In this document: piece after piece, positions 20,889 through 57,159 of the stretch
Position numbering within the stretch: the first letter of the stretch is position 1
Layout: every line of letters starts with the position of its first letter
Sequence record: DRR723986_6929
Reading direction: 5' to 3' (one strand)
DNA length: 64,000 nt
The notes under the pieces: model-generated
What the model saw: the letters and a program-made list of their open reading frames with translations, nothing else
What the model was told of the DNA's origin: nothing
The model's database searches: none
Translations under genes and position numbers: made by a program

Positions 20889-20949
20889 TTTTAGATATTC
20901 ACGCGGCTTAGGTGCCGCAACGTTACAATAATCAATGGAGGAAAGGCGA

Positions 20950-21630
20950 ATGAAGCCTGTTTCCAACATATGCACCTCGTTATATGAGGCCAGAGACCAC
21001 GCTGTGATTGGTGTGAGCCCTTTCAATAGCTATTTTTCCGAAGCTCGACTTACGGACCTGTTTTCATGGGCGAAGCAGCACTTCAATAGTTTCCACGTGT
21101 TCGTGCCCGACGAAGCGACCCGCTACACGCTTGAAGCTGCGGGTTATAGCCAAGCACGGGCAAAGAAAAAAGCCAGACGGCAAGCAAACTATCTTCTGAA
21201 CAAGATCAAGCGGGCGCTATTGAAAACATCTCCCAAACTTGATCTCTCGTTTGTGCTCACAAATGGAGTGCTCAGAAACAATGGCCGCTATAATGCGCTT
21301 CTGGCAAAGGTTGAGCAGCGTTTTGCAACTGACAGGGTGTTCAGGCAGCAATGTCTGGAATGTACCCGCTGGGTCCTTGAAAATCAGGTCGAAGAAATCG
21401 ACACAATTGATGAGGCTGCGTTGTTACATGCTGTTCAGTATTTCCTCGAGGAAATGCCGCTCTTTATGGACAGTGCCAGCATCGTCAGCGCGCACACATC
21501 GGTGTTCTGCTATCATCAATGTCCTGCAGTCTTGCAAGGACTTTATGAGGACCGCTCAGACGGCCTCATAGATGAGCAACAGGGCTTCTTAATAGTCAAA
21601 AAGCCCATGCTGGCAACAAAAGTAACCTAA
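20950..21630 (+). CDS. tRNA-dependent cyclodipeptide synthase (NYH subfamily)
   Basis: HAVIGVSPFNSYF, YFLEEMPLF, CYHQ, QGFLIV; GGAGG RBS. Confidence 0.9.
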   Translation: MKPVSNICTSLYEARDHAVIGVSPFNSYFSEARLTDLFSWAKQHFNSFHVFVPDEATRYTLEAAGYSQARAKKKARRQANYLLNKIKRALLKTSPKLDLSFVLTNGVLRNNGRYNALLAKVEQRFATDRVFRQQCLECTRWVLENQVEEIDTIDEAALLHAVQYFLEEMPLFMDSASIVSAHTSVFCYHQCPAVLQGLYEDRSDGLIDEQQGFLIVKKPMLATKVT

Positions 21631-21664
21631 CACCCATAATATGTAGGGGCGTCTCCGGACGTCT

Positions 21665-22075
21665 CTATTCTTCCAACAAACGATCAATAATAGCGCAGTC
21701 CGGGGTTTCACCGCCGCTGCATTCAGCAGCCATGCCTTCCAGTGCAGCTTGCATTTTGGCGAGGTCGTTGATTTTGCCAGCAATGACACCGGCATTGACG
21801 AGAGCAATATCTCTTACTTCATCGCAAGCGTATGACCCATCAACCATTTCCAATAGCCCTGTCACTTCCTGATTGGTAAAACCGAGTTCGCGCGACCTGC
21901 GGATAAACTTCAATCGCTTCAGATGATCCATTGAATAGCACCGATAGCCAGCTTCTGAGCGCGGCGGATCAGGCATAAGGCCAATTTTCTCATAAAAACG
22001 TATGGTCTCCAAGTTTACGCCAGCCTCTTTCGCCAGCTTGCCTCTCGTGTATTCACGTTTTTGAGATATGGTCAT
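21665..22075 (-). CDS. merR: Mercury-responsive regulator
   Basis: MerR HTH, three Cys, divergent from merTPA. Confidence 0.8.
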   Translation of the reverse strand: MTISQKREYTRGKLAKEAGVNLETIRFYEKIGLMPDPPRSEAGYRCYSMDHLKRLKFIRRSRELGFTNQEVTGLLEMVDGSYACDEVRDIALVNAGVIAGKINDLAKMQAALEGMAAECSGGETPDCAIIDRLLEE

Positions 22076-22082
22076 TTTTCTC

Positions 22083-22113
22083 TTTACCCTGTATTTAATA
22101 CAGGGTGTAGGCT
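22083..22113 (+). promoter_or_regulatory. mer promoter/operator
   Basis: TTTACC-19bp-TAGGCT; perfect dyad ACCCTGTATT-T-AATACAGGGT. Confidence 0.85.
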
Positions 22114-22199
22114 ACATGAAATTCAGCCGTAACGCAAATAGCATTTTGAACGAACACATAGACAAGAATGAAGTTAGTAATCAAAGAAAGACGACAGTA

Positions 22200-22574
22200 A
22201 TGAGTGATGTTAAACAGCCGGTGGACAGTAGCAAAAACTGGAGCACCAGCCTTGGTGCCGTTGGTGCAATATTGGCTTCGTCATGCTGTATTTTACCGTT
22301 TGTCTTCCTGATGCTGGGTGTTAGCGGCTCATGGATTGGCAACCTTACAGTTATGGAGCCTTATAAGGATTATTTTGCATTGATTGCGCTTGGGTTTTTG
22401 GGCGTCGGTTTTTGGCAGGTTTACTTCAAGCCAAAGAAACAATGCGATGAAGGCTACTGTGCAACGCCGAAGTCTGAGCGTGTCATCAAATCGGTTTTAT
22501 GGGTTTCCACAGTGCTGGTTTTGCTGGCGCTGACGGTTGATTTTTGGGCACCGATCCTCGGTGAATATATTTAA
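22200..22574 (+). CDS. merT: Mercuric transport protein
   Basis: ASSCCILP, WIGNLT, C-x4-CA, three TMs. Confidence 0.9.
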   Translation: MSDVKQPVDSSKNWSTSLGAVGAILASSCCILPFVFLMLGVSGSWIGNLTVMEPYKDYFALIALGFLGVGFWQVYFKPKKQCDEGYCATPKSERVIKSVLWVSTVLVLLALTVDFWAPILGEYI

Positions 22575-22589
22575 ACGTAAACAAGGAGA

Positions 22590-22931
22590 ATGAAGATGAA
22601 ACGATTGATCAAAGCATGTGCTATCGCCGTTGTACTCGGCGTGGCTATGCCGGTTACCGCTGTTATGGCGGATGATGCCAGCACGACGACACAGCAAGTT
22701 GCCGAAAAGAAAGTAACTTTCGATATTGAAAAAATGACCTGCGCCATGTGCCCGATCACAGTGCGCAAAGCGATGGAGAAGGTTGACGGTGTTTTATCTG
22801 TTGTAACTGATTATGACGCCAGAACAGCAGTTGTGACTTTTGACCCGGCAAAGGCAAATGTTGAAGCTATTGCCAAGGCCTCTGAAAATGCCGGTTACCC
22901 TGCTATTCTCGATGATAGCCAAGGCTCATAA
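22590..22931 (+). CDS. merP: Periplasmic mercury-binding protein
   Basis: Signal peptide, MTCAMCPITV. Confidence 0.9.
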   Translation: MKMKRLIKACAIAVVLGVAMPVTAVMADDASTTTQQVAEKKVTFDIEKMTCAMCPITVRKAMEKVDGVLSVVTDYDARTAVVTFDPAKANVEAIAKASENAGYPAILDDSQGS

Positions 22932-22933
22932 AT

Positions 22934-24379
22934 ATGGCGTTTGACAGACCAGAGAGCAGTTGCTGCTCACCGGAAAACACCGAAACCAAAACAAGTGTTA
23001 TGGTGATTGGTGCTGGCTCGGCAGGATTCTCAGCCGCAATTACGGCTGCAGAAGCAGGTGCAGTGGTAACACTTGTCGGCGCGGGCACCATTGGCGGCAC
23101 CTGCGTTAACGTTGGCTGTGTGCCGTCTAAAACCATGATCCGGGCTGTTGAAGCGCTTTATCAGGCCCCTCATGCCGCACGGTTTAATGGCATCACCTCC
23201 ACGGCTAAGGTGCTCGACTGGCAGGCCGTTGTCGCGCACAAGCAACAGCTTGTGGAAGAGTTACGCCAAGCCAAATATATTGACGTTCTGCCTGCCCATC
23301 CAGACGTGCATTATATAGAAGGTCGCGCACAGCTTACTGAAGACGGCGTTATGGTCGACGGCAAGCTTCATACGCCTGACAAGATTATCATAGCCACGGG
23401 TTCATCAAACATGGTGCCTCCGATCCCCGGTATTGAAACGGTTGATCATCTGGACAGTACGTCGGCCCTCGACCTTGAAACCCTCCCGAGTTCCATGATC
23501 ATCATTGGCGGCGGTGTAATCGGATGCGAACTTGGTCAAATGTTTGCCCGTGCTGGCGTTAAGGTCACAATATGCTGTCGCAGTCGTTTGGTGCCAGATA
23601 TGGAGCCCGAGATTAGCCAAGCTCTGCAAACCTATCTGGAGGCTGAAGGCATCACTGTATGCGCTGGCATTGGCTACCAAGCGATTGAACAGCACGGCGA
23701 CGGCATTAGGCTTCACTGTGAAAACAAAGGTCAGGCCAATATACTTGAGGCGGAAAAAGTTTTACTGGCCGCTGGGCGCAAACCAAACACGGCTGGCCTT
23801 GGACTTGAAGACGCGAGCGTTTCACTTGCCAGGAACGGCGGTATTGAAGTTGACGCTTTGATGCGCTCGACCAATCCCAATATTTATGCCGCTGGCGATG
23901 TTACGGGCACGGATATGTTTGTTTATATGGCGGCCTACGGAGCAAAGCTCGCCGCCCAGAATGCAACAGGCAGTGACACGCGGCCCTATAATAATGCTGC
24001 CATGCCTTCGGTTGTTTTTACTGACCCGCAAGTCAGCAGCGTTGGCCTGACGGAATCTCAGACTAAAGAGCAAGGCCACAGTGTGAAAACAAGCGTGATC
24101 ACGCTTGACCATGTACCGCGCTATCTGGCGGCGCGCGATACACGTGGTTTGATCAAGCTTATAGCTGACAGGGAGACGGACAAACTGCTGGGAGCCCATA
24201 TATTGGCACCCGAAGGCGGCGAACTCATTCAAACCGCTGTGATTGCCTTAAAGGCTAACATGACCGCAACAGAGCTGGGACAGACCATATTCCCGTACCT
24301 TACAGGGGTTGAAGGGCTCAAACTGGCCGCACAAACCTTCGATAAGGATGTCAGTACGCTATCTTGCTGCGCCGGATAA
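22934..24379 (+). CDS. merA: Mercuric reductase (no NmerA domain)
   Basis: GGTCVNVGCVPSK, C-terminal LSCCAG. Confidence 0.95.
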   Translation: MAFDRPESSCCSPENTETKTSVMVIGAGSAGFSAAITAAEAGAVVTLVGAGTIGGTCVNVGCVPSKTMIRAVEALYQAPHAARFNGITSTAKVLDWQAVVAHKQQLVEELRQAKYIDVLPAHPDVHYIEGRAQLTEDGVMVDGKLHTPDKIIIATGSSNMVPPIPGIETVDHLDSTSALDLETLPSSMIIIGGGVIGCELGQMFARAGVKVTICCRSRLVPDMEPEISQALQTYLEAEGITVCAGIGYQAIEQHGDGIRLHCENKGQANILEAEKVLLAAGRKPNTAGLGLEDASVSLARNGGIEVDALMRSTNPNIYAAGDVTGTDMFVYMAAYGAKLAAQNATGSDTRPYNNAAMPSVVFTDPQVSSVGLTESQTKEQGHSVKTSVITLDHVPRYLAARDTRGLIKLIADRETDKLLGAHILAPEGGELIQTAVIALKANMTATELGQTIFPYLTGVEGLKLAAQTFDKDVSTLSCCAG

Positions 24380-25661: not shown

Positions 25662-26380
25662 ATGCCAGAGATAATCAGGAAAGAGATAAACAATAAAGAG
25701 ATAAACCCGAGAGAGCAAAACGGGAAAGAAAAAAGTCGAAAAGACGCAAGCCAATCAGATACGTCAAAGCTGACGGTTTATAGCGAGGTCACGGGCCGGA
25801 TTATCGCTGAACTGGAAGCCGGTCGGGTGCCATGGGTTCAACCGTGGTCGAGCACCTCGCACGGGGCACGCGTGGGCTTGCCGGTCAATGCCCAGACGGG
25901 CAAAACCTATAGCGGCATCAATATTTTGCTGCTTTGGGGTCAAGTGCTGAAGCGCGATTTTTCGGCACAAAGCTGGCTCACCTACAGGCAAGCCCAAACG
26001 CTCGGCGGCAATGTGCGCAAGGGCGAAACATCAACAACCATTGTATATGCCGACAGCTTTACCCCCAAAGATGAACGTAAAGCCGCATGGGAAGAAGGTC
26101 GCGATCCGCAGCGCATCCCGTTCCTCAAGCGCTACCGGGTTTTCAATCTCGATCAATGCGACGGTCTGCCCCGCGATCTCTACGCCCAAGCACCCGACCT
26201 GCCCCCATGCGAGCAACTGCCCATCGCTGAAAAGCTGATCAAGGCAACCGCCGCAGATTTCAGGATTGGCGGCAACCGCGCCTTTTATGTACCGAGCGAA
26301 GACTATATCCAAGTGCCGCCGCAACCACTTTTCCACGCCCAAATCGACTATTACCGCACCTGTTTTCACGAATTGGGCCA
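25662..26380 (+). pseudogene. ardC: ArdC antirestriction protein, 5' part (interrupted)
   Basis: PWVQPW, YSGINILLL, WLTYRQA, VFNLDQ, ends FHELGH at insertion. Confidence 0.9.
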
Positions 26381-26405
26381 TAATGCCGCGCTTCGGATTA
26401 TGCCG
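26379..26405. repeat. RIT left inverted repeat
   Basis: CATAATGCCGCGCTTCGGATTATGCCG. Confidence 0.9.
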
Positions 26406-26463
26406 CGCTGACCCATCAATCTTTCGGTAACATAGATCTTTCAGCGCGGCACATCGGCATAAT

Positions 26464-27462
26464 CTACAGGGCCTCCAAGAACGACAACAGCTCGTCGCCG
26501 GGTCGATAACGCCCATTTGGAGCATTGACAGGTTTCGTCAAAGCCATCGCTTTTTCCTTCAGTTCGATATCAGCGTGGATATAGACCTGCGTCGTCTCGA
26601 CGGATTCATGGCCCAGCCAAAGGGCGATGATGGTTCGATCTACACCGCTTTGTAGAAGCTGCATTGCAGCAGTGTGGCGCAGAACATGTGGTGTGACGCG
26701 CTTCAATCTAAGGGTCGTGCTATTCAGCGCTGCCTTGGCCGCATTTTTCCGAACAATTCGCTCAATCGCGTCCCTGCTCAAAGGCGTGCCTCGGATCGTC
26801 GCAAACAGCGGATCGTTGGATGCCGCACAGGTTTCGGCCAACCACACTTTCAATGCGTTTCGGCTGTCTGTCCTTAGAGGTGTTGCGCGCTCCTTTCGGC
26901 CTTTGCCCACGCATCTGACATGAGACCCCGTTCCGAGTTCAACATCAGCCACGCGCAGGCCGATCAATTCCGAGACACGCAAGCCCGTCTGGAGCGTGGT
27001 CAGCAGTAGGACCCGATCACGCCGACCGAACCAAGTCGACTGATCGGGTGCCTTCAGCAATGCCTCCATCTCATCGCGTGTCAGAAAGTCCACAACACGT
27101 TTTTCGTGCCGCTTGGACGGCATCGCCAGCACCCTTTGGCAATGATGCAACAATTGAGGTTCACAACCTGCCACATATTTGAAGAATGACCGAATGGCGG
27201 CAAGGCGCGTGTTTCGACTTCGTGCGCTATTGCCTCGTTCTTCTTCGCAAAAAGTTAAAAAATCCCCGATGATGTCGGCGTCGATATGTGCAACATGTAG
27301 GTCTGTTGGGGGCCGCTTGGTTTGCGCTTCCGCGTATTTGAGCAAGAGCCTGAAGGTGTCACGATAGCTGGCAATCGTGTTCGGGCTTGCCTGCATTTGC
27401 GTCAAGAGCCGCTCGGTAAAGAACCGTTGCACGAACACTGGCAATGGATAGGTCGCAATCAT
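26464..27462 (-). CDS. ritC: RIT tyrosine recombinase C
   Basis: TGLRVSE, HVLRH, LGH..TTQVY. Confidence 0.9.
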   Translation of the reverse strand: MIATYPLPVFVQRFFTERLLTQMQASPNTIASYRDTFRLLLKYAEAQTKRPPTDLHVAHIDADIIGDFLTFCEEERGNSARSRNTRLAAIRSFFKYVAGCEPQLLHHCQRVLAMPSKRHEKRVVDFLTRDEMEALLKAPDQSTWFGRRDRVLLLTTLQTGLRVSELIGLRVADVELGTGSHVRCVGKGRKERATPLRTDSRNALKVWLAETCAASNDPLFATIRGTPLSRDAIERIVRKNAAKAALNSTTLRLKRVTPHVLRHTAAMQLLQSGVDRTIIALWLGHESVETTQVYIHADIELKEKAMALTKPVNAPNGRYRPGDELLSFLEAL

Positions 27463-28403
27463 GATGCATCCTCCAAAACCCGCTGTTCGGCCCGCGCGGC
27501 GGCGAGCTGCATGAGTTCTGGCACGGCTTCGATGTACCAGAATGTGTGCTCCGGCTTAGAGTGTCCGAGATACGTGCTGAGCTTGTACATTTCGCATTCA
27601 ATGTCCCTGCCATCGCGGAACCAATCCAGAATGGTGTGGACGGCAAAGCTATGTCTCAAATCGTGAATGCGAGGTCCGTGACCGTGGCGGTTGAAGGATT
27701 GAGGGGATCGCAACCCGATATTTTGGCTAACTTGCGCGAAGTTGTAACGCGCCCCGCAATCGCCAGCCGGTTCACCATCTTCCTTGATGAAGAACCGTCG
27801 CGACTGATCGTCGACCAACCGATCTCTCAAATTGGCATAGGATGCTAGCCGCGTGGCGGTATCCTTGTTGATCGGAAGCTGTCGATCTTTTCCGTTCTTG
27901 GTGTTCCTGACGACCAGAACAGCGTTGTCCAGATCAATATCATGTTGATCCAAAGACAGTGCTTCATTGACCCGCATTCCTGTCACAGCGATCAATCCGA
28001 AGAGGGTTTGCCACAATGCAGCCCGCAGGCCATACGGTGACGTTAGTCGACCGGCCTCAGCGACGATATCTGCAATTTGCTTGGGTGCATATATGTACGG
28101 GACACGCCTTCTATAGCGGCCTGCAACAAGCTGGCTGGGCGGGATCTCGGTCTCATCGTCGTGTTCCGCAAGCCAGAAGGCAAATCTACGAACCATGCCG
28201 AGGCGACCAAACCACGTGTTGTTGTCCGCACTGCCATAGTTCTCTTTCCAGTCGAGGAACAAGGTTGTTGAGATCAGATGACGCCCGCTCTCATCGCCGT
28301 AAGTCGCGAACTTGCGTAGGACTCGTTCTTCGAAAGATAGGTCAAAACCCATCGCGCGGCGCAGTGCCAGATATTCGTCAAGCCGTTGTGAGAGCGTCTT
28401 CAT
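27459..28403 (-). CDS. ritB: RIT tyrosine recombinase B
   Basis: TGMRVNE, HDLRH, LSTYLGH..TFWY. Confidence 0.9.
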   Translation of the reverse strand: MKTLSQRLDEYLALRRAMGFDLSFEERVLRKFATYGDESGRHLISTTLFLDWKENYGSADNNTWFGRLGMVRRFAFWLAEHDDETEIPPSQLVAGRYRRRVPYIYAPKQIADIVAEAGRLTSPYGLRAALWQTLFGLIAVTGMRVNEALSLDQHDIDLDNAVLVVRNTKNGKDRQLPINKDTATRLASYANLRDRLVDDQSRRFFIKEDGEPAGDCGARYNFAQVSQNIGLRSPQSFNRHGHGPRIHDLRHSFAVHTILDWFRDGRDIECEMYKLSTYLGHSKPEHTFWYIEAVPELMQLAAARAEQRVLEDAS

Positions 28404-29647
28404 TGCACGTCCCCCGCAGTTGGCCAAGGGCGCGAGATTGAGCCCAGGGCATCCACATCGTGTTGCGCATAAATCGTCGTGGTCAGCGGAGACCGGTGAC
28501 GCAGCACGTCCCCAATGTCAGAGAGCGATGCACCCTTACGCAACATGTCAGTGGCAAGGCTGTGTCGTAGAATATGGGTGCCGATATAGGCTTGTGGCGG
28601 GCTGATTCCTGTTGCGTCATAAGCGTCACGCAAAATCCAGCGCAGGATTTGAGCATCCTTAAACCTCTTGAATGGCGGTTTTACCGAGACAAACAACGCA
28701 CGGGCCTGCCCCCGGCGTTCGTTCTGAATGTAATCCACAATCGCTTCGCCAACCTCTGCGGACATCGGCATCCGGTCTTGCAACTGTCCTTTGCCCCGGA
28801 TCAGTATCTCACCCGCACGCCAATCGATGTCATCTAACTCTATCGCTGTCACCTCTGGGGCTCGAAGGCCCAGACGGGCGATAAGCATCAGCATTGCATA
28901 GTTGCGTCGGCCTGTTTTCTTGTGACCTCGAACCACATCTAACAGGCGGTTGACTTGGTCTGGCTCGAGATATCGGGGGATGCCGGTCGGCTTTGGTTGC
29001 CGCGCCTTTGGCACCGATTTGCTCAGGTTCCGTTCTGTTTTTCCGCTCCAAAACAAGAATTGGAAGAGATTGCGAAGATGTGACGGACCAGTTTTGTCGC
29101 GCGGCGCATTTTGCTCTTCGCGTAGTCGGAGAATGAAGCCCGATATGTCGTCGGGTTTGATCGCATTCAAATCACCCAAACCCATACCGAATTTTGCAGT
29201 CAAAAAACGCTCGTAGAAGCGAAGGCAATGATAGATCGTATCGCTGGACAGCCCACGCTGAACGCGGAGATAGGTCTCGTACTCGCGTTTAAGGCAGGCT
29301 CTAGGGGTCATGTCCAACGGAGGGGGCAGACGTGTAGGGGCATCTGCGTTCTCAATCAAATAGTCCCTGAACCGATTCAGGCGGTATCGACAATGTTTTT
29401 GGTCTTTCGGAGAAGCGGCGTTGATGATCGGCAAGGCAAGTTGGTCCATGCGGTCATTGGTCAAATCAGCGGGACCAAGCTTGGCCGCATCCATTACAGA
29501 CCAAAGGGTCCCGGCTGTGGTGCCGTATTTGGCAACGGAACCCTGACTGTAACCCTCAGCCTCAATCTGTGACGCGAAGCGCTCCGAGTGGTTGCCCGTG
29601 TGCTTACTTGTCTTCGTCGGGCGATCTGATTGCGTGTCGTTTTCCAT
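28400..29647 (-). CDS. ritA: RIT tyrosine recombinase A
   Basis: LGLRAPE, HILRH, LRH..TTIY. Confidence 0.9.
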   Translation of the reverse strand: MENDTQSDRPTKTSKHTGNHSERFASQIEAEGYSQGSVAKYGTTAGTLWSVMDAAKLGPADLTNDRMDQLALPIINAASPKDQKHCRYRLNRFRDYLIENADAPTRLPPPLDMTPRACLKREYETYLRVQRGLSSDTIYHCLRFYERFLTAKFGMGLGDLNAIKPDDISGFILRLREEQNAPRDKTGPSHLRNLFQFLFWSGKTERNLSKSVPKARQPKPTGIPRYLEPDQVNRLLDVVRGHKKTGRRNYAMLMLIARLGLRAPEVTAIELDDIDWRAGEILIRGKGQLQDRMPMSAEVGEAIVDYIQNERRGQARALFVSVKPPFKRFKDAQILRWILRDAYDATGISPPQAYIGTHILRHSLATDMLRKGASLSDIGDVLRHRSPLTTTIYAQHDVDALGSISRPWPTAGDVQ

Positions 29648-29992
29648 AGGTATTTCCTTCATTTGGTTGAAGGGTAAACTTATCACAGATCACGAATGCA
29701 GACGCTCAGCGCGTGAACTTGGAGGTGCACACTGCGGACGAAGCGGACATCCTCAGTTCATACTTGAACGTCTGGATTTCGCCAGAAGCGGAAGGTCATC
29801 GGAGTCAAAATCACGACAGTTGAAAGGCTCGAACCGACCCAACGCGGACAGTTTTAATCCCCGGTATAAGGGTGTGTGTGGGCAAAAACATTTAACCCAT
29901 GTGCCAAATAAAAAAGCCACCGCTCGTCTGTGCTTATTTGTTTAGGCATTCCTTGGATTTCAAACCTATCAATACCAGGATTTGCTTAAATA

Positions 29993-30424
29993 TCAGTAAG
30001 GATTTGCTTTGTGGCAACTGATACAGGCACCAGTAACGCGGCCTGCCATATAGTAACGTTCTCTCTGAGCATACCGTATAGCCATATCCACATCAGAAAG
30101 GAATTCATCCATTCCGTCTGCCAAGAACTCATGCCTGGAACGGATGTCACCGTATCTTAGGTTCCTTCCGATACGCTCAATTCTATTAAGGCTATCAATA
30201 ACGGATTGCTGAAAAAATGGGGTCTCATCATATTCGTCTGAAAGAGCGCCATCGAGCCTTTGTAGTGCATATGCAAGCTGGTGCATACCCGAGCGTAATT
30301 CCTCGCCGTCCTCGTAATCAAAAGCAGGAGGGTTTGCGACCTGAGGAAAACTGCCATTATTGCTTGCGCACCCCGCTAAGGTTAGACACATGCAAGCGCC
30401 TATGGATAAAGACAAATATTTCAT
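29993..30424 (-). CDS. Lipoprotein cytochrome c'-like (four-helix) protein
   Basis: LAGC lipobox; C-terminal CISCH. Confidence 0.7.
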   Translation of the reverse strand: MKYLSLSIGACMCLTLAGCASNNGSFPQVANPPAFDYEDGEELRSGMHQLAYALQRLDGALSDEYDETPFFQQSVIDSLNRIERIGRNLRYGDIRSRHEFLADGMDEFLSDVDMAIRYAQRERYYMAGRVTGACISCHKANPY

Positions 30425-30712
30425 ATCAAACGCTCTACCTGTTTATGTTGAACTCCAAGCCTATTAAAACACAAATGGTGTGAAATTACTGCTCGATAAA
30501 AGGTTTAGGGGCGCCTTACGGCCTGCATGAACACTCTACCCACCAACCTTACTGTCCGCTCATGGCGAGAAGCGCATTTAGTACGGGTGGTAGTGTCGTT
30601 AACTCAAAAAAAAAGTGACCGGGCGCATCTGTGGGAAGGATGACCTGCTTACAGGAGAGAAAACGGGATTTTCTCGTCGCCCGATCACTAGCTGGGTAGA
30701 CTAACAAATAAT

Positions 30713-30728
30713 TGTTTCCATGGAAACA
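30713..30728. promoter_or_regulatory. Candidate MarR operator 1
   Basis: Perfect palindrome TGTTTCCATGGAAACA. Confidence 0.6.
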
Positions 30729-30780
30729 TATAATTGATATGACCATGTGGTGACGCATTTTTCCAAATATCGAGGTGTAA

Positions 30781-31668
30781 ATGACAAATTCAGGTCAGTT
30801 TGAGCAATCCTTCGACGACAACTCCCATTCTTTGTTTTCTCTGCTAAAGCTTCGCGATGTTAGCGCAGGCGGCGCACAGGTGTGCGCATGCCTTCCCTAT
30901 CAAGAGAGCTTCAGTGGCGGAGCGGACAGGGGACTAGCCAAAGGATGGTCGGTTATCACGCTGGATACACTTCTTGGCATGGCCGTCTATGGCCGATTGC
31001 AAGAAACCAGACCGATTGCGACCATCGATCTTGCTGTAGATTATCTGGAGCCTGCCGGTAAAGGGGCAGATTTAATTTGTGAGGCAAATTGCCACGACAT
31101 CAAAGGCAATATTGCCTTTGTCAGCGGCTGTATCAGCGATGCACGGGATGGTTATCAAATCGCCAAAGTCAACGCCAAATTCATCATTAAAAACTCTCCA
31201 AAACCGCAAGGAGAGCGGGGTTCATCGCAGTATATATCGCAGCCATGGGAATTGCCGCAGGCAGAGCTGTGCCCTGGCTTCGAAAAACTGAAGTCCACTG
31301 TCCCTTTTGCCAGCTGGCTCAACCCAGAGCGATACACTTTCGACGGTAAATCTGTTTTCGCTCTTGAATTCAACGACAGCCATATCGGCGACCCTTACGC
31401 TCGTACCGTCCATGGCGGCATCTTGACAAGCCTGATGGAAACGGCCGCGGTAGGTACTCTTGCGATTGATAAGAACGCCGAGGAACTTGCTGATCCTCTG
31501 TCGCTAAAAGTACAGTTCCTGCGTCCGACTGGAGCGCGGAACACCTATGCATCTGCCTCCATCATACGCGCCGGGAAAAATATTATTATAGTTGATGCGC
31601 ACGCATGGCAGGAAAGTCCCGACAAACCGGCAGCCAGAGCCACATTTCTGTTCAAGGCGGGCACTTGA
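30781..31668 (+). CDS. Tandem PaaI/hotdog thioesterase
   Basis: ATIDLAVDY and VHGGILTSLME in two hotdog domains. Confidence 0.8.
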   Translation: MTNSGQFEQSFDDNSHSLFSLLKLRDVSAGGAQVCACLPYQESFSGGADRGLAKGWSVITLDTLLGMAVYGRLQETRPIATIDLAVDYLEPAGKGADLICEANCHDIKGNIAFVSGCISDARDGYQIAKVNAKFIIKNSPKPQGERGSSQYISQPWELPQAELCPGFEKLKSTVPFASWLNPERYTFDGKSVFALEFNDSHIGDPYARTVHGGILTSLMETAAVGTLAIDKNAEELADPLSLKVQFLRPTGARNTYASASIIRAGKNIIIVDAHAWQESPDKPAARATFLFKAGT

Positions 31669-31686
31669 AACTGGATTCGGTCCTGT

Positions 31687-32133
31687 TTAACCCTTCTCAA
31701 CTTCACTCAATAGCCGCATTTTGGCGTCTGCCAGAAAATCAATGATTTCTTCTCTTTTTTCTTCTGCCAAGTCGCCCCAAATATAAGCGAACAAATCCTC
31801 TGCTTCGTTCTGTAATGTGGGCAGGATATGCTGGATTTTGTCTGTTAGATAAATTCGATTTGCTCGCTTGTCGATGGCATCAGGCAAGCGTTTTACCCAG
31901 TCACCTTTTTCAAGTCGCGACAGCATTTTTGAAAGTGGTGCACGGGCCATGTCCATCTGATCAGCCAGCTGCTGCTGGGTCAATCCATCACACCGGCGCA
32001 GGTTCGCCAGCGCAAACCACTGTGCCGGTGTCAACCCAGCATCTTTAATGCGGCGGTCAAAGGCACATTTCATCAGACGGGCGACATCCTGGATAAGGAA
32101 GCCCAAATTTCTGTCATAATTTTCCATAATCAA
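31687..32133 (-). CDS. MarR-family regulator
   Basis: LTPAQW, LTQQQLA, DKRANRIYLT. Confidence 0.9.
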   Translation of the reverse strand: MIMENYDRNLGFLIQDVARLMKCAFDRRIKDAGLTPAQWFALANLRRCDGLTQQQLADQMDMARAPLSKMLSRLEKGDWVKRLPDAIDKRANRIYLTDKIQHILPTLQNEAEDLFAYIWGDLAEEKREEIIDFLADAKMRLLSEVEKG

Positions 32134-32152
32134 TCTATATCATTAAACATAT

Positions 32153-32168
32153 TGTATCCATGGAAACA
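32153..32168. promoter_or_regulatory. Candidate MarR operator 2
   Basis: TGTATCCATGGAAACA, one mismatch to operator 1. Confidence 0.6.
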
Positions 32169-32216
32169 GTATTATAGTCTGCTAACAAAATAAACACATA
32201 TCAGGAACGACAGCCA

Positions 32217-33080
32217 ATGTACCCCTTTTCCCGACTAGCGCTTGCTTTGCTGATCTCCGGGGCCTTTATTATATTGCCTTATGGTCCCATAACTGCCGTA
32301 GCGAGCCAAGCTCAAGACGCCTTTAACTCTGTGCAGAGCGAAGAAATAATCGTCGCGACCGGCGTCATGAAATCCAGGCGTACAAGTATGCTTGGCCCGG
32401 TTGTGCCCGGTGTACTGGAACAAACCTTTGTGAAGGTCGGCGACATTGTTACAAAAGGCCAAGCCCTGTTCCGCATCAGGCCGGTCGACTATGAAATTGC
32501 GGTTCGAAAGGCAAAAGCCGCACTGGACCTGGCGCGAGCTCGTGTCGAGCTGCAAAACAAACGTTTTGACCGCGTATCAGAGCTATTTAAAGATAAAAAC
32601 GTGAGTGAAAGTGCGCTCGAAGAAGCTAGAGCCAGCCTTGATGTCGCTTTGGCCGAGCAAGCGCTTGCCCAGACTGATCTGGATAATGCAGAGCAAATAT
32701 TGTCCGACACCACCATTCGAGCTCCTTACGACGGCGTGATTACGAAAAAAGTAGCGGACGAAGGCGTTTTCAAGACGGTACAGGCCTTCTCCGGCAACGG
32801 CGGCGTTGTTGAGCTTCAGGAAGCCGGGATTATGGTAGCTATTCTATTTGTACCCGTCAGCCAGACCGCGCGCATTGAACTAGGTCAGAAAACATTGCTT
32901 TCCATCGACGGCCTGGATCAGAGATTTGCAGGTGAGATTGCCGTTATCAACCATCAGGCCCACGTGAGCTCCAATATGCTTGAGGTTCGGGTAGCTGTCA
33001 TCAATGACGGTCTCGCCATCAAAGACGGCCAAACGGTGATTGCTCGTATTTATGCGGCGGAAAAGGTGAGCCAGCAATGA
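32217..33080 (+). CDS. RND efflux membrane fusion protein
   Basis: VKVGDIV.KGQ, IRAPYDGVI. Confidence 0.85.
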   Translation: MYPFSRLALALLISGAFIILPYGPITAVASQAQDAFNSVQSEEIIVATGVMKSRRTSMLGPVVPGVLEQTFVKVGDIVTKGQALFRIRPVDYEIAVRKAKAALDLARARVELQNKRFDRVSELFKDKNVSESALEEARASLDVALAEQALAQTDLDNAEQILSDTTIRAPYDGVITKKVADEGVFKTVQAFSGNGGVVELQEAGIMVAILFVPVSQTARIELGQKTLLSIDGLDQRFAGEIAVINHQAHVSSNMLEVRVAVINDGLAIKDGQTVIARIYAAEKVSQQ

Positions 33081-36000
33081 GTCTTTCCGATGTTTCAATT
33101 AAAAGGCCTGTGCTCGCCGTTATGCTGATCGGTGCGCTTGTTGTTTTGGGCTGGCTTTCCTTACCCCGGCTCGGTGTTGATCTGTTTCCGGATGTGGAGT
33201 TTCCCTACATTTCTGTAACCACAACCCTTGAAGGGGCATCACCGGATACGATTGAGAGCGAAGTTACCGATGTCATCGAGGAATATGTTAGTACAATCTC
33301 AGGGCTGCGCCAGGTGCGCTCGACCAGCACGGAAGGCGTTTCGCAGGTCGTACTTGAGTTTGAACTTGATGAAGATATCGGCGAGAAGTCGGAAGACGTA
33401 AGGGATAAAATCGCGCGCGCCGTTTCTGACTTACCGGCGGATGCAAACGCACCGATAGTAGAAAAAGTTGATCCCGATTCCGCCCCTATCATGACACTGA
33501 TTATCTCTGGCGACGCCGATGTCGGCGCTTTGACAACCTACGTTGACGAGAAAATTGTTGCCGATCTGGAACGGCTGCCCGGTGTTGGCTCCGCCAAAAT
33601 CCTCGGAGGCCGCTTGCGGGAAATGCGAATCTGGCTTGACCTTTACCGCATGCGTGCCTTTGGTGTTACCTCTTCCGACATCAGAAATGCGCTGAACCAA
33701 GAACATGTAGAGCTGCCCGGCGGCAGGCTTGAGGTAGGCGGAGGCGAGCGCGAATATATCGTAAAAACTGACGCAGAGGCCAGCACGACCAAAGAATTTG
33801 CTGATTTAGTTGTCTCCTTCCGTACCGGCACAAGGCCAGTGAAGCTGGGGGATATAGCAACAATTGAGGACGGGCTGGAAGATGAAAGAAGTGTAGCGTT
33901 TCTCAATGGCCGTCCGAGTATTGCCGTTGAACTACGCCGCCAATCCGGTAAAAACACCGTTGCTGTCGCCAATCTTGTCAAAGACTATATCACCCAGAGC
34001 AGTGAGCGGCTCCCGGACGGCATGTCAATTGAAGTTTCGAGGGACGTATCCCGTTTTATTGAGTCCTCAATCGAAGACGTGCAAAAAGACCTGGTTATCG
34101 CCATCCTGCTAGTGGTGGCGGTTACATTCTTCTTTGTGCTCAATCTAAAGGCTACTTTGATCGTGGCCCTCGCCATTCCAACATCGCTCATCGCAACATT
34201 TTTTGCGCTGTATGTCTCAGATTTCACATTGAATACTCTGACATTGCTGGCATTGACGGTTGCGATTGGTCTCTTGGTAGATGATGCGATTGTAGTGGTT
34301 GAATCTATTCAGAAAGAACTGGACAAGGGCCTAGAGCCACACGAGGCCGCTTCGGGGGGCACCAGGAAAGTTTGGCTTGCGGTTATGGCGGGCACAGCAG
34401 CGACGCTCGCTGTTTTTCTGCCTATCGCTTTCATGTCCGGGATCGTAGGGCGGTTTTTCATGCAATATGGGCTCGCGATTGTATTTTCCGTTTCGGTTTC
34501 ACTTTTGGTTGCGCTTACCCTCACACCCATGCTCGCGTCCCGGTTTATGGCGAAAGCTTCGATTGGCGGCGGTCTGCTACATCCTATCGAGCGGTTTCAT
34601 GAATGGCTTGTCCGCAGTTACGCATCCGCTCTCAAAACAGCTATTCGCTTCCGCTATATTGTCATGGTTATTGCGTTTCTATCGTTTGCTGGCGGTATAT
34701 TGATCGCCCAGCAAATACCGACCGGATTTTCTCCTCTAGCCGACCGTTCCGAATTCCTCGGGCAGGTCGAACTACCGCTCGGTATTGGTATTGAAGAAGT
34801 GAAGCGAGCCGCAAACACGCTCAACGAGGCTCTTCATACTGTCGATGAGGTGACGTATGTGCTGATTACCGCTGGCGGGGGTGCGCAGCAAAAAATCAAC
34901 CTGCTTGATTTCTATGTCGCGCTGACCCCCAAACAAAGCCGCGAACTTACCCAGCTTACCCTGATGTCCGATGCGCGAAAGGCGATTGCGAGCGCTATGC
35001 CGTCTGCCCTGAAAACATCCGTGTCCGAGGTGCCGTGGGTTTCAGGTGGCGGGGTATCGAGCAGTAAGATGGAATACGTTATTCAAGGGCCAGTGCTTGA
35101 GCAAACAAATGCCTATGCGAATACGCTGGTTGAGAAAATGAGAGCCTCCCCCTTGTTCGCTGATGTGCGCACCAGCTATGAAGCTGGAAAACCAGAGTTG
35201 AAACTGCGGCTCAACCGTCGCTTGTCAGGGGAACTGGGGATCAGTGCGCGCGCTATCGCTCAGGATAGTCAATTGATGATTGGTGGTTCCGATGTGGGCA
35301 CGTTCGAAGCGGGAGGACGCAGGTATGACGTGCGGGCCCGGCTGCGCGCGGATCACCGCGACGAGCCTGGTGACTTGCAATTGATGCAGTTTCGCGGTGC
35401 TTCGGGTGACCTGTTGGATGCTGGTGTTTTGCTTACCTTTGAAACGGGGACTGGCCCGTCTCAGATTGACCGCGTTGACCGCGGGCGTAAAATTTCCCTT
35501 TTCGCAAACCCAGCTGGCGGCGTTTCACTGGGCACGGCATCCGATGCCTTTGCTCAGGAGATGCTGGAAACACCTTTACCAGATGGCATGACGCTTATTG
35601 TTGAGGGAGAAGCACGCCGCCTTACGGAAACCGTTGAGGCAATCAGCTTTGCGTTCATTTTGGCAATCATCGCGCTTTACATGGTTCTTGCCGTTCAGTT
35701 CGACAGCTTTGGCCAGCCCATTATAGTTATGCTGACGGCGCCTCTGTGTTTTTCAGGTGCTTTCGCCGGTCTTTATCTCGCGGATTTGGAAATATCACTT
35801 TTTTCCCAGATCGGCCTAATCGCCCTGATGGGGATTGTGATGAAAAACGGTATTCTTCTGGTAGACCGGGCAAACCAATTGCGTGCAGACGGCCTGACAC
35901 GGCTTGAAGCCATCAAACTTGCCGGTCCGGAGCGACTAAGGCCGGTATTGATGACGGCCCTGTCTGCGGTGTTTGGCATGATGCCAATTGCTTTCGCCAC

Positions 36001-36184
36001 CTCTGACGGTGCTGAATGGCGCAACAGTATGGGCTTCATTATTATGGGTGGGTTGTCATCCTCGACAATCCTCACCCTGTTTGTGATCCCTGCGGCATAC
36101 GGAATCATCACCGATGCCGACAAGGCCGTAGGTAAAGTACGTATGTATTTCGCGGGCAAAAAAAGCATGCCCATAGGTGACTAA
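33077..36184 (+). CDS. AcrB/MdtC-family RND permease
   Basis: GLLVDDAIVVVE, RLRPVLMT. Confidence 0.9.
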   Translation: MSLSDVSIKRPVLAVMLIGALVVLGWLSLPRLGVDLFPDVEFPYISVTTTLEGASPDTIESEVTDVIEEYVSTISGLRQVRSTSTEGVSQVVLEFELDEDIGEKSEDVRDKIARAVSDLPADANAPIVEKVDPDSAPIMTLIISGDADVGALTTYVDEKIVADLERLPGVGSAKILGGRLREMRIWLDLYRMRAFGVTSSDIRNALNQEHVELPGGRLEVGGGEREYIVKTDAEASTTKEFADLVVSFRTGTRPVKLGDIATIEDGLEDERSVAFLNGRPSIAVELRRQSGKNTVAVANLVKDYITQSSERLPDGMSIEVSRDVSRFIESSIEDVQKDLVIAILLVVAVTFFFVLNLKATLIVALAIPTSLIATFFALYVSDFTLNTLTLLALTVAIGLLVDDAIVVVESIQKELDKGLEPHEAASGGTRKVWLAVMAGTAATLAVFLPIAFMSGIVGRFFMQYGLAIVFSVSVSLLVALTLTPMLASRFMAKASIGGGLLHPIERFHEWLVRSYASALKTAIRFRYIVMVIAFLSFAGGILIAQQIPTGFSPLADRSEFLGQVELPLGIGIEEVKRAANTLNEALHTVDEVTYVLITAGGGAQQKINLLDFYVALTPKQSRELTQLTLMSDARKAIASAMPSALKTSVSEVPWVSGGGVSSSKMEYVIQGPVLEQTNAYANTLVEKMRASPLFADVRTSYEAGKPELKLRLNRRLSGELGISARAIAQDSQLMIGGSDVGTFEAGGRRYDVRARLRADHRDEPGDLQLMQFRGASGDLLDAGVLLTFETGTGPSQIDRVDRGRKISLFANPAGGVSLGTASDAFAQEMLETPLPDGMTLIVEGEARRLTETVEAISFAFILAIIALYMVLAVQFDSFGQPIIVMLTAPLCFSGAFAGLYLADLEISLFSQIGLIALMGIVMKNGILLVDRANQLRADGLTRLEAIKLAGPERLRPVLMTALSAVFGMMPIAFATSDGAEWRNSMGFIIMGGLSSSTILTLFVIPAAYGIITDADKAVGKVRMYFAGKKSMPIGD

Positions 36185-36219
36185 ATCCCTCACGCCACCC
36201 AAAGACTGAGGTTTTTTAT

Positions 36220-36297
36220 TGGTTGCGAGAGTAGGATTTACCACTGCGGGGCTTCGCCTCCTCGTGATGACCTACGACCTTCAGGTTATGGGCCTGA
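36220..36297 (-). pseudogene. 3' half of tRNA-Met(CAT) with a 29-nt insertion in the T-loop
   Basis: Minus strand TCAGG-CCCATAA-CCTGAAGGTCGTAGGTC[insert]AAATCCTACTCTCGCAACCA; 5' half absent. Confidence 0.75.
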
Positions 36298-36614
36298 ATG
36301 GCGCCATCAAAGGGTCTGATGTGTAATTACAAGAGCGGAACGCGTGGTGTTCGCTCTTGGCCGAAGGTTGCCCTCTCTATCCGGTCGGGCTGAATGACCG
36401 CAAAGGGTCAGGGAACGACCGTTAGCCTATAAGCCGAGACTGGTGGGTCTCTCGCCACAAGCGGACATTCGCTGCGCCGCAGAAGTCTGGTGAATTGGGC
36501 TCTGAGTCAGCTTTCGCTGCTTTCTGTTTGAATGACTGCTGTTGCCGAATTTCAATCTTATGCAGTTACGGATTTGCGAAAACCTAGTCAAACAAGCCCC
36601 CTACAGCCAAGGCA

Positions 36615-36665
36615 CGGCATAATCCGAAGCGCGGCATTATGAATATTATGCCGACATCGGCATAA
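36615..36665. repeat. RIT right inverted repeat plus terminal palindrome
   Basis: CGGCATAATCCGAAGCGCGGCATTATG then TTATGCCGA-CA-TCGGCATAA. Confidence 0.9.
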
Positions 36666-36978
36666 GGGCCACTGGACCGGAGCCAAGCACCGGCTTGACC
36701 GCCCTATGGAGACCAGCAAAGGCAGCAAACTCTACGCCCGCGAAGAACTGGTTGCCGAAATGACCAGCGCCTTTGTCTGCGCCTCCCTCGGCATTGTCCC
36801 AACCGTGCGCCACGCCGATTATATCGGCGCGTGGCTCGACGTCCTGCGCGCAGACGATAAAGCCATTTTTCGCGCCGCCAGCAAAGCCTCCAAAGCCGCC
36901 GATTATATCCTTGCGTTTCACCTTGAGGCTGGCCCGAAAAACGACCCAGAAAGCACCCCGGAACGGGGGCCAGCATGA
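36666..36978 (+). pseudogene. ardC: ArdC 3' part
   Basis: GHWTG..RLDR, YAREELVAE, HADYIGAW, AIFRAASKA. Confidence 0.9.
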
Positions 36979-51958: not shown

Positions 51959-53131
51959 TCATAGCCCTGGGTAGTATGTCTCAAGTAAGTTTCTTGTCAG
52001 CTGTTCGCCGCGAAGAGAAATTCTATCTACATCTTTTTCACTCATGGGATTAAAGTCCGTGGGATAATCGAAAGTCTCTTTACGTGGAACTAAATCGGGG
52101 GGCGGGCATGGGAGACTCTCATCTTGTTGGCCCAGGTATGGCAGAACAAATCCTTTGATCTCGCCCGCCCTTGCAAGCCTGTGCAGCAAATCAAATGACA
52201 TGGAGTGCGTCCGCCGATGAGTTGTGGATACTGTCGCTAGCATACGGGAATCCCAGTGGTAGGGGATTTGGGAGGCGTCTGGAAGTCCTTGCCCAGCCAC
52301 ACAACAGATAATAAAATCGACATCTGAGACGTTGGCGCTGAATTTAGCGTCGCGTCCAGGTAGCAAACAACTTATCCCAAGATTGTCGTATACGCCGCCA
52401 TCCGTAATAACTGTGCGATGTGAGGTTGTTTTGCCATGTTTTGAGAAGAGTTGGAATTCGTCGAATGCCGGCAAAAATACAGGGAATGCCGCTGATGCCG
52501 CTACAGCTTTGGCGACAGAAACTGGTTCCACAAGCTTCCCGAAACGCCATGATCCGCATTCTTTTGTACCATACCGAAAAGCAGTTCCTGTTCTTAGTTC
52601 AGTTGCATTAATCACGACTTCGAGATTGCGTCGCTTAACTTCTGGAATCAACTTCTTATGAAAAACGATCTCATTCAAATACTTGGCGAAGGCCGTCGTT
52701 CTGCTTGCATACCTTGGCAATGGCGCCTGCATTGCAAGAGTGGCTTTTTTGATGAGAGCGCTCTTGATACCTAACAATCCCAACAATGCAAAAAACACTG
52801 AAAGTAATTTCCCTGCCAACGCCAGCACGCCCGATGTCAAAATAGTACCAACTATCTTCGGTGTTTCAGAAGAATACAAAGTTTTTTGCGCTATACCGAT
52901 AAGCAGACCTTTTTTTAAAAGTGCTTCGGTTCGTTTTTCGAACTGATCAAAGGGTTCGTCAAAATATGCATAAAGTGCGGCAATTACGCTTCCACCAGAA
53001 ATTGAAGAGATTAGATTTACGCGGTCAAGGACTCCCTGATCATGCAGCGCTCTCATACACCCCAAGTGGAATGCAATAGCACGTGCCCCACCACCTGAAA
53101 GAGCCAATCCAATTTTAAGTTTCCTTGCCAC
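51959..53131 (-). CDS. Patatin-like phospholipase
   Basis: LSGGGARA, SISGG, ASAAFP, DGGVYDN; GTG start 1 nt after upstream stop. Confidence 0.9.
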   Translation of the reverse strand: MARKLKIGLALSGGGARAIAFHLGCMRALHDQGVLDRVNLISSISGGSVIAALYAYFDEPFDQFEKRTEALLKKGLLIGIAQKTLYSSETPKIVGTILTSGVLALAGKLLSVFFALLGLLGIKSALIKKATLAMQAPLPRYASRTTAFAKYLNEIVFHKKLIPEVKRRNLEVVINATELRTGTAFRYGTKECGSWRFGKLVEPVSVAKAVAASAAFPVFLPAFDEFQLFSKHGKTTSHRTVITDGGVYDNLGISCLLPGRDAKFSANVSDVDFIICCVAGQGLPDASQIPYHWDSRMLATVSTTHRRTHSMSFDLLHRLARAGEIKGFVLPYLGQQDESLPCPPPDLVPRKETFDYPTDFNPMSEKDVDRISLRGEQLTRNLLETYYPGL

Positions 53132-53132
53132 T

Positions 53133-55418: not shown

Positions 55419-56560
55419 TGGCCAAAGCCGACTTTTTCGCTGGGCGGTTCGTCCGAACCACGTGATGCCGCGACAGCTGCTGCAATCTTGTCGACTGAAA
55501 CGTCGGCAGCAGCTTCTTCACCAACAAATGTGATTCCGTTTTCATCAACGTCAAAAACTAGTGGTTCGCTATCTTGACTATTCTCATGCGTACATAAGAA
55601 TTGACCCTCAGCGACTTCTTCGTAACGCCGCTTGGCTTTTGCATGCGGGGGGTTGTCGCCTTTTTTATTCTGGGCAGGTACTGCCTCACTGCTAGAAACA
55701 ATGCAACCTGCGCCAACCTGAAACTCCGCTAGGTCGTCCAACATATCCTGTTTTAACACCTCCGAACCATCTTCGTCCTGGTACATTGCCGATTTGCTAC
55801 AATGGTGGGGCGCCAAGAAAATCTTCCACGCAAGAAACTGCTCGTTTCCGGCCTCTTTAGTGAAATCGAAAATTTTTCGTATACGCGGATACGCTATGTC
55901 GCCAAAAAGCAATGCACCACCGGCGCTTGGATCATCGCCCAGCACCACCTGCATCGCGAGGCTGGTATTATTCCTATCCCCATCGCCCTCGTCCTTAAAC
56001 GGAGCATGAATAAAGGCGTTAAACTCTCCGTCGTGATCTTCACCATCAAGTTCCGTGATCGAATTTCCGGGAATTGTGAGTTTGTCTTCGGGAAACCCGT
56101 TAAACTCATCCTCTTCGAGAATACTATCGTGGCCGATCACGCGTACCTTGTCGCCTGAGTCCACTGTGCCATCTTGGTCTATCATTGCTTTGATCCGTCG
56201 TTCGGCTTCTTCTTTGAAAGCTATAGCGTCATCACAAAGATCAATATCAGATTCGAGAAAAACTCTAGGCGTGAACCAAAGTTCACCAATCATCACTCGA
56301 TCAAGGAGATCAGCAAATCCAAGGATATGATCTTGATCTGGATGAGTTAGTGCAAAGCCAGCCAAATAGGGATTTCCATCTATTTCAGGCAGCTCTTCAA
56401 CAAGCTTATCAACTAGAGAAACATGATCATCACCTGCATCGTCTGACTTGCTCAAGTCACGGAGGTCAACCTGCAAAACAACTCCATCTTTTATTACAAC
56501 TGATGTACTGTCTCCGGTGCCAACGGGCCAAAATAGAAACTGCGGGTGTTCAAACATCAT
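55415..56560 (-). CDS. ComEC-like metallo-beta-lactamase-fold hydrolase
   Basis: VGTGDS, THPDQDH, FGD, PHHCS; tail KVGFGQ. Confidence 0.85.
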   Translation of the reverse strand: MMFEHPQFLFWPVGTGDSTSVVIKDGVVLQVDLRDLSKSDDAGDDHVSLVDKLVEELPEIDGNPYLAGFALTHPDQDHILGFADLLDRVMIGELWFTPRVFLESDIDLCDDAIAFKEEAERRIKAMIDQDGTVDSGDKVRVIGHDSILEEDEFNGFPEDKLTIPGNSITELDGEDHDGEFNAFIHAPFKDEGDGDRNNTSLAMQVVLGDDPSAGGALLFGDIAYPRIRKIFDFTKEAGNEQFLAWKIFLAPHHCSKSAMYQDEDGSEVLKQDMLDDLAEFQVGAGCIVSSSEAVPAQNKKGDNPPHAKAKRRYEEVAEGQFLCTHENSQDSEPLVFDVDENGITFVGEEAAADVSVDKIAAAVAASRGSDEPPSEKVGFGQ

Positions 56561-57159
56561 AAATTCCTCATTACAGTTTACGCCATCGAAGCCTTCATGC
56601 CGTTTGGCATTGGTTTCACAACTCCAATAAACAAAGAGGCTAGAGCAGTTATATGGGTTGATAATAAAAGATGTGGGGTTAAGTAGCAAGGATTCGTCGG
56701 AATCTAACAACAAATGAAGTCACAGAGAGAATTCAAATTTTTTGGTGTTCGCAAAAGCTCAAGGCAGGTGACCATGGTAGGTTTTCATAAGTAAGCCAAG
56801 TTTCGTAAGACATCTTTTACCCGTTCCCCAAAACGACAATGTTGCTCTATTTTTCATTGCTGTAAATTTTAAAAGACGAGCGGAGCGAGGGCAACAGGTT
56901 GAATACTTTTATGCATTAGTGTTGCCGAAAATAGTTCCGCTGTTTCCGAATAATTCAGAAAATCTATATTGATTTCATTGTCCGACCACATAATTTTAAT
57001 CTACCGTTTCGACCGCGCCGCGCCGATAGTAAATTGTGTTGCTTAGAACTTAACCCAAGCCCATTTGCTGAAAACGAAACCTGTTGGAGACAATTTTTAT
57101 GTTAACCCAAATTCAGAACCCTCTCAAATTATCTCGCCGTGTAACCTATATGAACACCG

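Follow-up and report, generated by a model that had tools for sequence, protein, structure and literature searches.

RIT (recombinase in trio) elements are defined by three adjacent tyrosine recombinase genes that overlap by 4–8 bp (PMC3414803), and the typical element is about 3.5 kb long and carries inverted repeats (IRs) of 28–29 bp, a palindrome and the genes ritABC in the order A-B-C (Van Houdt 2012, PMC3414803). Taken over two accounts, the terminal IR measures about 28–34 bp and is accompanied by a palindrome (PMC3414803, PMC10214605). The same account calls the role of the three recombinases unclear and describes no convincing further sites (PMC3414803), while the section on RITs in a later account states that their movement has not been reproduced to date (PMC10214605). 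A precedent for passengers is found in one sentence on four-gene RIT-type elements with a TetR gene (PMC2864759), Rit subgroups have been described (PMC8138268), and raised coverage of RITs was seen in a mobilome, with no circle resolved (PMC5737581). Among other multi-recombinase elements, GInts carry variable cargo (PMC5385486), and in SEs and Tn554 a 6-bp footprint accompanies the element from one site to the next (PMC10214605). Here we analyze a stretch of 64,000 nucleotides (sequence record DRR723986_6929; hereafter the window), in which an ardC gene is interrupted by a RIT element of 10.3 kb that bears efflux and other cargo genes. Insertion of RITs into DUF1738 genes was reportedly noted by Ricker in 2013, and that work may already mention RIT passengers.

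The element shares with RITs the three overlapping recombinase genes in A-B-C order, terminal IRs with a palindrome and the insertion into genes of mobile elements, but it differs from the typical 3.5-kb unit of those accounts by its size (up to 37.6 kb in a relative), by a variable slot and by a second set of sites. With GInts and SEs, as far as the respective sections describe them, it has several recombinases and variable cargo in common, and its spacers have their nearest parallel in the 6-bp footprint known from SEs and Tn554; those elements, in contrast, possess four core genes (GinC/Tfp-type plus a small helper), their cargo lies downstream of the operon and no cargo-border sites are described in these sections, whereas the window element has only three recombinase open reading frames between the ritC-side IR and the slot and carries its cargo upstream of ritA. 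In integrons, whole-gene modules are exchanged at a fixed site beside a tyrosine recombinase gene and belong to a wider pool of free modules. Comparative evidence indicates that RIT modules are likewise exchanged at a fixed site adjoining a recombinase gene; unlike in integrons, the element encodes no IntI (TIGR02249 scores of 44–89 at a cut-off of 265), the border sites form no attC-like hairpin, and the modules have two distinct site types, either gene orientation and lengths of up to 34 kb. The ends of IS91-like elements resemble and abut one of the border sites, but such elements were not found in the window. The element is a true RIT, a variant that works like an integron-style platform yet is no integron.

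The best explanation, which we regard as probable when taken as a whole, with an outer set of sites for movement and an inner set for cargo exchange, is that the element is an intact RIT transposon, mobile in the recent past, whose two sets of recombination sites are separate. We present the evidence on whole-unit movement, on the outer ends and on the cargo slot before turning to the coordinates (Table 1), the interrupted gene and competing explanations.

Mobility of the Element as a Unit

Four of the 23 listed sequencing runs (X1–X4), all in the form of contigs, were compared with the window. One contig of 10,294 bp in run X1 spans positions 26375–36641 (10,267 bp) with a single difference, a single-nucleotide polymorphism (SNP); in this copy the palindrome is located at the ritC end and the sequence behind 36641 is not ardC, so that the element would have a second configuration in the same strain if X1 is the source of the window. 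Run X2 contains both ardC junctions in the orientation of the window, and in X3 the element is flipped beside the same ardC 3' part (26376 joined to 36645 on opposite strands), as seen in one contig of depth 5.9 with 79 nt on the short side, matched at 90% likeness. In X4 the recombinases, the cytochrome gene and the tail are present at equal depth (about 63) and the flanks are almost uncovered; missing flank cover in X1 and X4, like the missing empty-site joint in all four runs, proves nothing alone. A further copy in a metagenome-assembled genome (locus L003) is 99.96% identical over the left 4,763 bp, where its contig stops, and lies within a traE-like gene that it interrupts; genome G039 carries the same stretch, and the pair was counted once. 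Judged from this named, near-identical locus, the host of the window is probably Kordiimonadaceae-like. We have little doubt that the 10.3-kb unit moves whole. The preliminary description of the locus had proposed that the RIT acts as a gene-capture vehicle, and the data carry this idea further than proposed: the unit moves whole, the slot holds other cargo in relatives and identical backbones differ in their cargo.

Outer Ends and Choice of Target

Both ends could be resolved in 20 loci including the window, and 11 more were dropped due to contig ends or odd layouts. Across relatives the order is target, NNNNCA, IR, element body, IR, NNNNCA, palindrome, NNNNCA, target, and the palindrome is found at the ritA end in 11 and at the ritC end in 9 of the resolved loci. 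A regular target duplication as the reading of the flanking GGGCCA was rejected, as the outer 6-mers are alike on both flanks in only 3 of the 20 resolved insertions and unlike in 17, and the motif was reread as a crossover spacer; the Yoonia element described below is one additional case with matching outer 6-mers. Unlike spacers on the two flanks would be compatible with a copy-out mode of movement that leaves no empty site, as in SEs and Tn554. Two loci (L071 and L076) represent one element at two sites and show that the spacers were carried over. The motif H-[E/Q]-x-x-H was read at 33 of 37 5' junctions.

These observations suggest a mechanism in which RitABC would act on ends where T(A/T)ATGCCG boxes surround NNNNCA spacers of 6 bp, presumably as tyrosine recombinase cores. 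We infer a circular form with two back-to-back cores flanking the palindrome; use of either core, a choice deduced in the same way, or inversion between both IR cores would give either orientation, with the palindrome staying on the 3' side of the target. The preferred target would be the codon for the second His of HExxH in genes of the ardC type, and the element would take along spacers from earlier sites. Five loci (L055, L061, L073, L103, and L171) have either 5' target halves and no palindrome at the two ends, or a palindrome at each of them, layouts that reflect either rearrangement between two copies or misassembly.

The Cargo Slot in Related Elements

RitA was found in 80 metagenomic loci, and the ritA-side IR was locatable in 45, the remaining 35 being too short, too distant or without an IR in range. 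While the distance from ritC to its IR is 60–63 nt in 33 of 34 metagenomic loci, that from the IR to ritA amounts to 93–249 nt in 24 of the 45 and to 765–3,067 nt in the other 21. These 21 relatives carry cargo of 12 unrelated types, such as LysR, LysE, BioY, GrpB, and a WYL regulator, always between the ritA-side end and ritA. On the Yoonia plasmid NZ_CP151764.1 the slot reaches 34.4 kb within an element of 37.6 kb, which is located between ardC halves, and 8 further plasmid records comprise three compact elements and five with cargo on complete plasmids (Roseivivax, Pukyongiella, Sinorhizobium fredii, Sphingobium baderi, and Martelella). The search for relatives with other cargo, which had been suggested as a check, was thereby successful in metagenomic and plasmid elements alike, and in the same slot. 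A RitA tree with 50 rows requires the cargo label to change 6 times, and supported branches force 4 or more of these changes. A RitC search in 401 genomes of the class at E 1e-100 gave no match and is uninformative at that cut-off, and viral contigs gave one weak match only. One RIT lineage (L184:9635–11829; L086–L088, L107) contains in its slot a gene pair for an HNH nuclease and an SMI1/KNR4 protein, likely a bacterial toxin-immunity module; L107 lacks about 470 bp of this stretch.

Cargo Exchange at Two Border Sites

Loci L094 and L072 share 100% identity outside the slot, whereas their genes inside it are unrelated (BLUF versus WYL regulator); the identity ends at a GAGCCC core on the IR side and resumes at a GTCC(C)GC core facing ritA. 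The same ritA-side core is the breakpoint in L074 (chromate transporter, 99.96%), in L083 versus L084/L097 (99%, with 99.5% for L084) and in L098 (95.6%). The breakpoint cores are part of two related sites of ~90 bp, here called L (IR side) and R (ritA side), which are in direct orientation, share an invariant CC and are about 52% alike by column. L lies upstream and R downstream in all 15 aligned modules, which were picked for having both sites, and the cargo genes are whole. Site models trained without window sequence match the window above shuffled scores at exactly two places, the two ends of the cargo (held out, R site 32 bits with shuffles at most 10.7, n = 10; L site 38 bits); the R core delimiting the cargo segment was placed 9 nt further in than the first match of the model. 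Held-out models also match both cargo ends in Yoonia and in genome G760, where an internal site suggests several modules, and the cargo of the window gave no internal match above shuffled scores. Compact elements retain, as judged by eye, a degenerate fused site.

The slot between the ritA-side end and the ritA leader would be bounded by two directly oriented sites, and gene modules may be exchanged there at fixed crossover points, drawn from an L...R-bounded pool that is common in roseobacter genomes. We consider site-specific exchange at the slot likely, and a site-specific enzyme presumably catalyzes it: a Rit protein, the recombinase or HUH enzyme of IS91-like elements acting in trans, and some other recombinase of the host or an island are candidates of about equal, modest likelihood.

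Border Sites Outside RIT Elements

The site model R2 matches 41 of 61 genomes in a sample of the Jannaschia family, up to 39 times each among 69 candidates scored per genome, and 1 of 46 relatives of the nearest genome, G001; a search of 301 genomes turned up a close RitA in 7. In 18 stretches the sites often bound modules of one to three genes beside assorted integrases, resolvases, and insertion sequences (IS). Small modules bounded by L...R are common in roseobacter accessory DNA (G521–G580 sample; L221–L238), and a chromosomal one (L178) carries TetR and RidA-like genes. The border sites match no Rfam family. An attC-like nature was tested and found no support: one of nine sites lies near z −2, predicted module junctions have a mean z of −0.6, and matched versus mismatched site halves do not co-vary (p 0.67, n = 15).

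The IS91-like elements encode a tyrosine recombinase and a Y2 HUH transposase (L233:11850–14500; L239–L253); we take IS91-family elements with an upstream tyrosine recombinase to be the ISAzo26 group. Since their upstream end mirrors the R-type module end and several of them sit inside R sites, they are a candidate catalyst or parasite of these sites, and in 6 of 10 loci an R-like motif past their downstream end exceeds the 95th percentile of random scores. Of the 61 genomes, 10 contain such elements and 41 the sites, the site-rich genomes G531, G554, and G556 gave no IS91-like match, and none was found in ten loci searched near the window or in the window itself. A search of five genomes for the Y2_Tnp family gave no match, and the control was equally silent.

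Origin of the Cargo

The block of thioesterase, MarR, adaptor, and RND genes is 94–95% identical to RIT-free copies in G001 and G026. Because the same kind of tRNA-Met 3' remnant follows directly after the RND block in G026 and in the tail of the window element, the block was probably derived from the margin of a tRNA-Met island. Such remnants (L135, L140, L147, and L150), several with the same hairpin insert of ~30 nt, separate gene modules in G026 and G023. Homologues of the cytochrome gene, with 75–85% DNA identity, occur in other contexts in six genomes of the same genus, none of which gave a RIT match, and 71 bp of the tail match repeat-like sequence on contig C22 of G001. The 6.76-kb cargo is therefore a mosaic of host-lineage DNA and most closely resembles genomes of the genus and family to which the host belongs. 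Homology to the native flank of the cytochrome gene ends at 30565, and a motif there could at a guess be an internal border.

Anatomy of the Element and the Interrupted ardC Gene

The 27-bp IR is perfect (26379–26405 and 36615–36641) and is the sole self-match of the window at E < 1e-3; the first two bases of each copy belong to the 6-bp spacers. The preliminary description was correct in placing GGGCCA on both flanks (26375–26380 and 36666–36671) and in seeing no inner IR beside ritA near 29.7 kb, as a third copy is absent from the window at up to 8 mismatches. Its terminal palindrome is present over 20 bp (36646–36665) but is not perfect, with 9-bp arms around a 2-nt center. Regarding the named cargo, profiles confirmed the thioesterase, the MarR regulator, the HlyD-type adaptor, and the AcrB-family RND permease; the cytochrome has no Pfam or NCBIfam match and is putative, as suggested by a C-terminal CxxCH and by a lead from the Atlas (0.90) to cytochrome c'. 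All three recombinases match the Phage_integrase profile and have intact catalytic R..H-R..H..Y motifs according to a motif search, their genes overlap by ATGA, and they were named RitA, RitB, and RitC by size, order, and similarity to annotated trios. A promoter scan of the ritA leader found none. Genes near the element in the window include those for ParB, a coupling protein of the TrwB type, and a TrwC relaxase.

Table 1. Features of the RIT element and the interrupted ardC gene, in window coordinates.
Feature	Position	Strand	Remarks
ardC 5' part	25662..26380	+	ArdcN domain and protease start through HELGH; stop at 26411 inside the element, 249 aa
Outer 6-bp crossover spacer GGGCCA, NNNNCA type	26375..26380	+	5' target junction
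ritC-side end	26379..26462	+	27-bp IR = two T(A/T)ATGCCG boxes; third box inverted, 26454–26462
ritC	26464..27462	-	Tyrosine recombinase, 332 aa
ritB	27459..28403	-	Tyrosine recombinase, 314 aa
ritA	28400..29647	-	Tyrosine recombinase, 415 aa; ATG at 29647 as in relatives
R-type cargo-border site, ritA side	29692..29783	-	Conserved CC core 29736–29737
Cargo segment, 6.76 kb	29738..36497		Spans between the two site cores
Putative c-type cytochrome, 143 aa	29993..30424	-	CxxCH
Double hot-dog thioesterase	30781..31668	+	Profile match
MarR regulator	31687..32133	-	Profile match
RND periplasmic adaptor, HlyD-type	32217..33080	+	Profile match
AcrB-family RND permease	33077..36184	+	Under the cut-off of every named NCBIfam drug-pump family
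tRNA-Met(CAT) 3' half, 30-nt insert	36220..36297	-	att-like remnant
L-type cargo-border site, IR side	36458..36543	-	CC core 36498–36499
ritA-side end	36558..36641	-	Third box 36558–36565; 27-bp IR 36615–36641; spacing as in compact relatives
Inner 6-bp spacer, TATTCA read inward	36640..36645	-	Putative record of an earlier target
Terminal palindrome, presumably two back-to-back binding boxes	36646..36665		3' side of the target
Outer 6-bp spacer GGGCCA	36666..36671	+	3' target junction
ardC 3' part	36667..36978	+	Remainder of the metalloprotease domain

Removal of the element from the sequence restores FHELGHWTG as had been noted: the separate ardC halves end in FHELGH and begin with GHWTG, positions 3–54 of the Pfam MPTase-PolyVal profile are covered by the left part and 53–126 by the right, and the uninterrupted allele of G001, located in a syntenic conjugative region, reads FHELGHWTG. 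The gene had been described as split at its HExxH motif; the insertion is indeed at HELGH, but the left fragment keeps the full HExxH and loses the downstream glutamate helix. The truncated 249-aa product retains the ArdcN domain. The suggestion that excision would restore antirestriction did not find support: the contigs of the four runs, which cannot prove absence, contain no joint that skips the element, and the ArdC protease is dispensable in R388. Since the protease mutant E229A of R388 ArdC, in the results given for it, still overcomes restriction and supports conjugation (PMC7213743), loss of antirestriction by the insertion, like its recovery, is hypothetical. The comparison of elements in PMC10214605 gives the empty site as absent for the related SEs and lists it as untested for RITs.

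Elsewhere in the window, positions 51959–56713 encode a patatin, an E2-ThiF-JAB fusion, and a 432-aa protein without Pfam match; the stretch is presumably a type II cyclic-oligonucleotide-based antiphage signaling system (CBASS) and has no match in the G001 loci compared. Positions 20935–24379 contain a cyclodipeptide synthase gene beside a cluster of MerR, merT/merP-like, and mercuric-reductase-like genes, and positions 57160–61204 genes for a non-specific endonuclease, a protein with a Tle1-like phospholipase domain, and a RES-domain protein.

Alternative Explanations

That the 10.3 kb are a fossil composite, in which a one-ended compact RIT lies beside host genes, the second IR stems from another copy and the cargo is immobile, would agree with the RIT-free RND block of G001 and G026 and with the RND contig of G039 that lacks the tail, but this idea is already largely refuted and we give it almost no credence: X1 contains the full unit with one SNP and other junctions, RIT and tail have equal depth in X4, the right end retains the native three-box spacing of compact relatives, and relatives share the layout. 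Regarding the slot, a RIT might just tolerate insertions upstream of ritA, with L and R as dispersed repeats that serve as landing pads or short homologies and with cargo changing by RecA or chance. The many kinds of integrases, resolvases, and IS adjoining the sites, genomes that have sites but no close RitA, the lack of an attC-like hairpin and the absence of sites from about half of the cargo types would all fit; yet easy RecA exchange is disfavored because the sites are so little alike (about 52% by column), and the independent breakpoints at the same invariant CC, the constant order of L and R in the 15 modules (chosen for both sites) and the whole cargo genes also make this improbable. 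The L...R modules might alternatively be non-autonomous passengers of IS91-like elements, with the RIT giving a landing site only, which is compatible with the slot and alters the catalyst only. We treat this as a tentative option: the mirrored upstream end, the elements inside R sites and the downstream R-like motif (6 of 10 loci) argue for it, whereas the narrow occurrence (10 of 61 genomes versus 41 with sites; no match in G531, G554, and G556) and an L end unlike their downstream end argue against it.

Several observations weigh against our preferred explanation of an intact transposon with separate outer and inner sites. Concerning movement, X1 is possibly the source of the window and perhaps not independent, G039 has a single IR and an RND contig that leads into IS66, like that of G001, instead of into the element tail, three loci (L055, L061, and L073) have a palindrome at neither end and L103 has two, and no circle, empty site, or swap was seen in the runs, all of which are contigs. 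Concerning the slot, the pairs with identical backbones are metagenomic contigs and could partly be misjoined, with a single isolate check available (L080 is a Roseivivax plasmid at 99.5%). Among the 12 metagenomic cargo types, only 5 show both sites clearly, and these five all belong to the training set; L055 shows the R site only and six types show neither. Nor did the models match a site in four distant, cargo-bearing RITs on plasmids. The L and R sites do not resemble the RIT end boxes and are also present in genomes without a close RitA. Moreover, R2 matches none of 28 genomes from the host-like genus, so that the explanation does not account for the entry of this cargo between the sites.

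Implications

RITs are widespread and have so far been treated as empty 3.5-kb units, and the literature searched (mostly without subscription papers) gives no account of the L and R sites or of a RIT cargo slot. The clade described here defines the outer cores exactly, yields a rule for the target, and adds an inner pair of sites as a second set, which makes the questions of RIT movement and of the three recombinases experimentally accessible. It is speculative that the RITs of this clade are self-mobile integron-like platforms with a new chemistry, in which at least one Rit protein carries the element from one HExxH codon to another and a different one loads and unloads the L...R modules. 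If true, separate Rit roles in moving and loading would account for the need of three recombinases, and the modules would come from a large, undescribed cassette pool of roseobacters. The finding points to a cassette-like repeat family in these bacteria and to a route by which marine Alphaproteobacteria may shuffle genes for efflux, metal resistance, regulation, and catabolism on conjugative elements.

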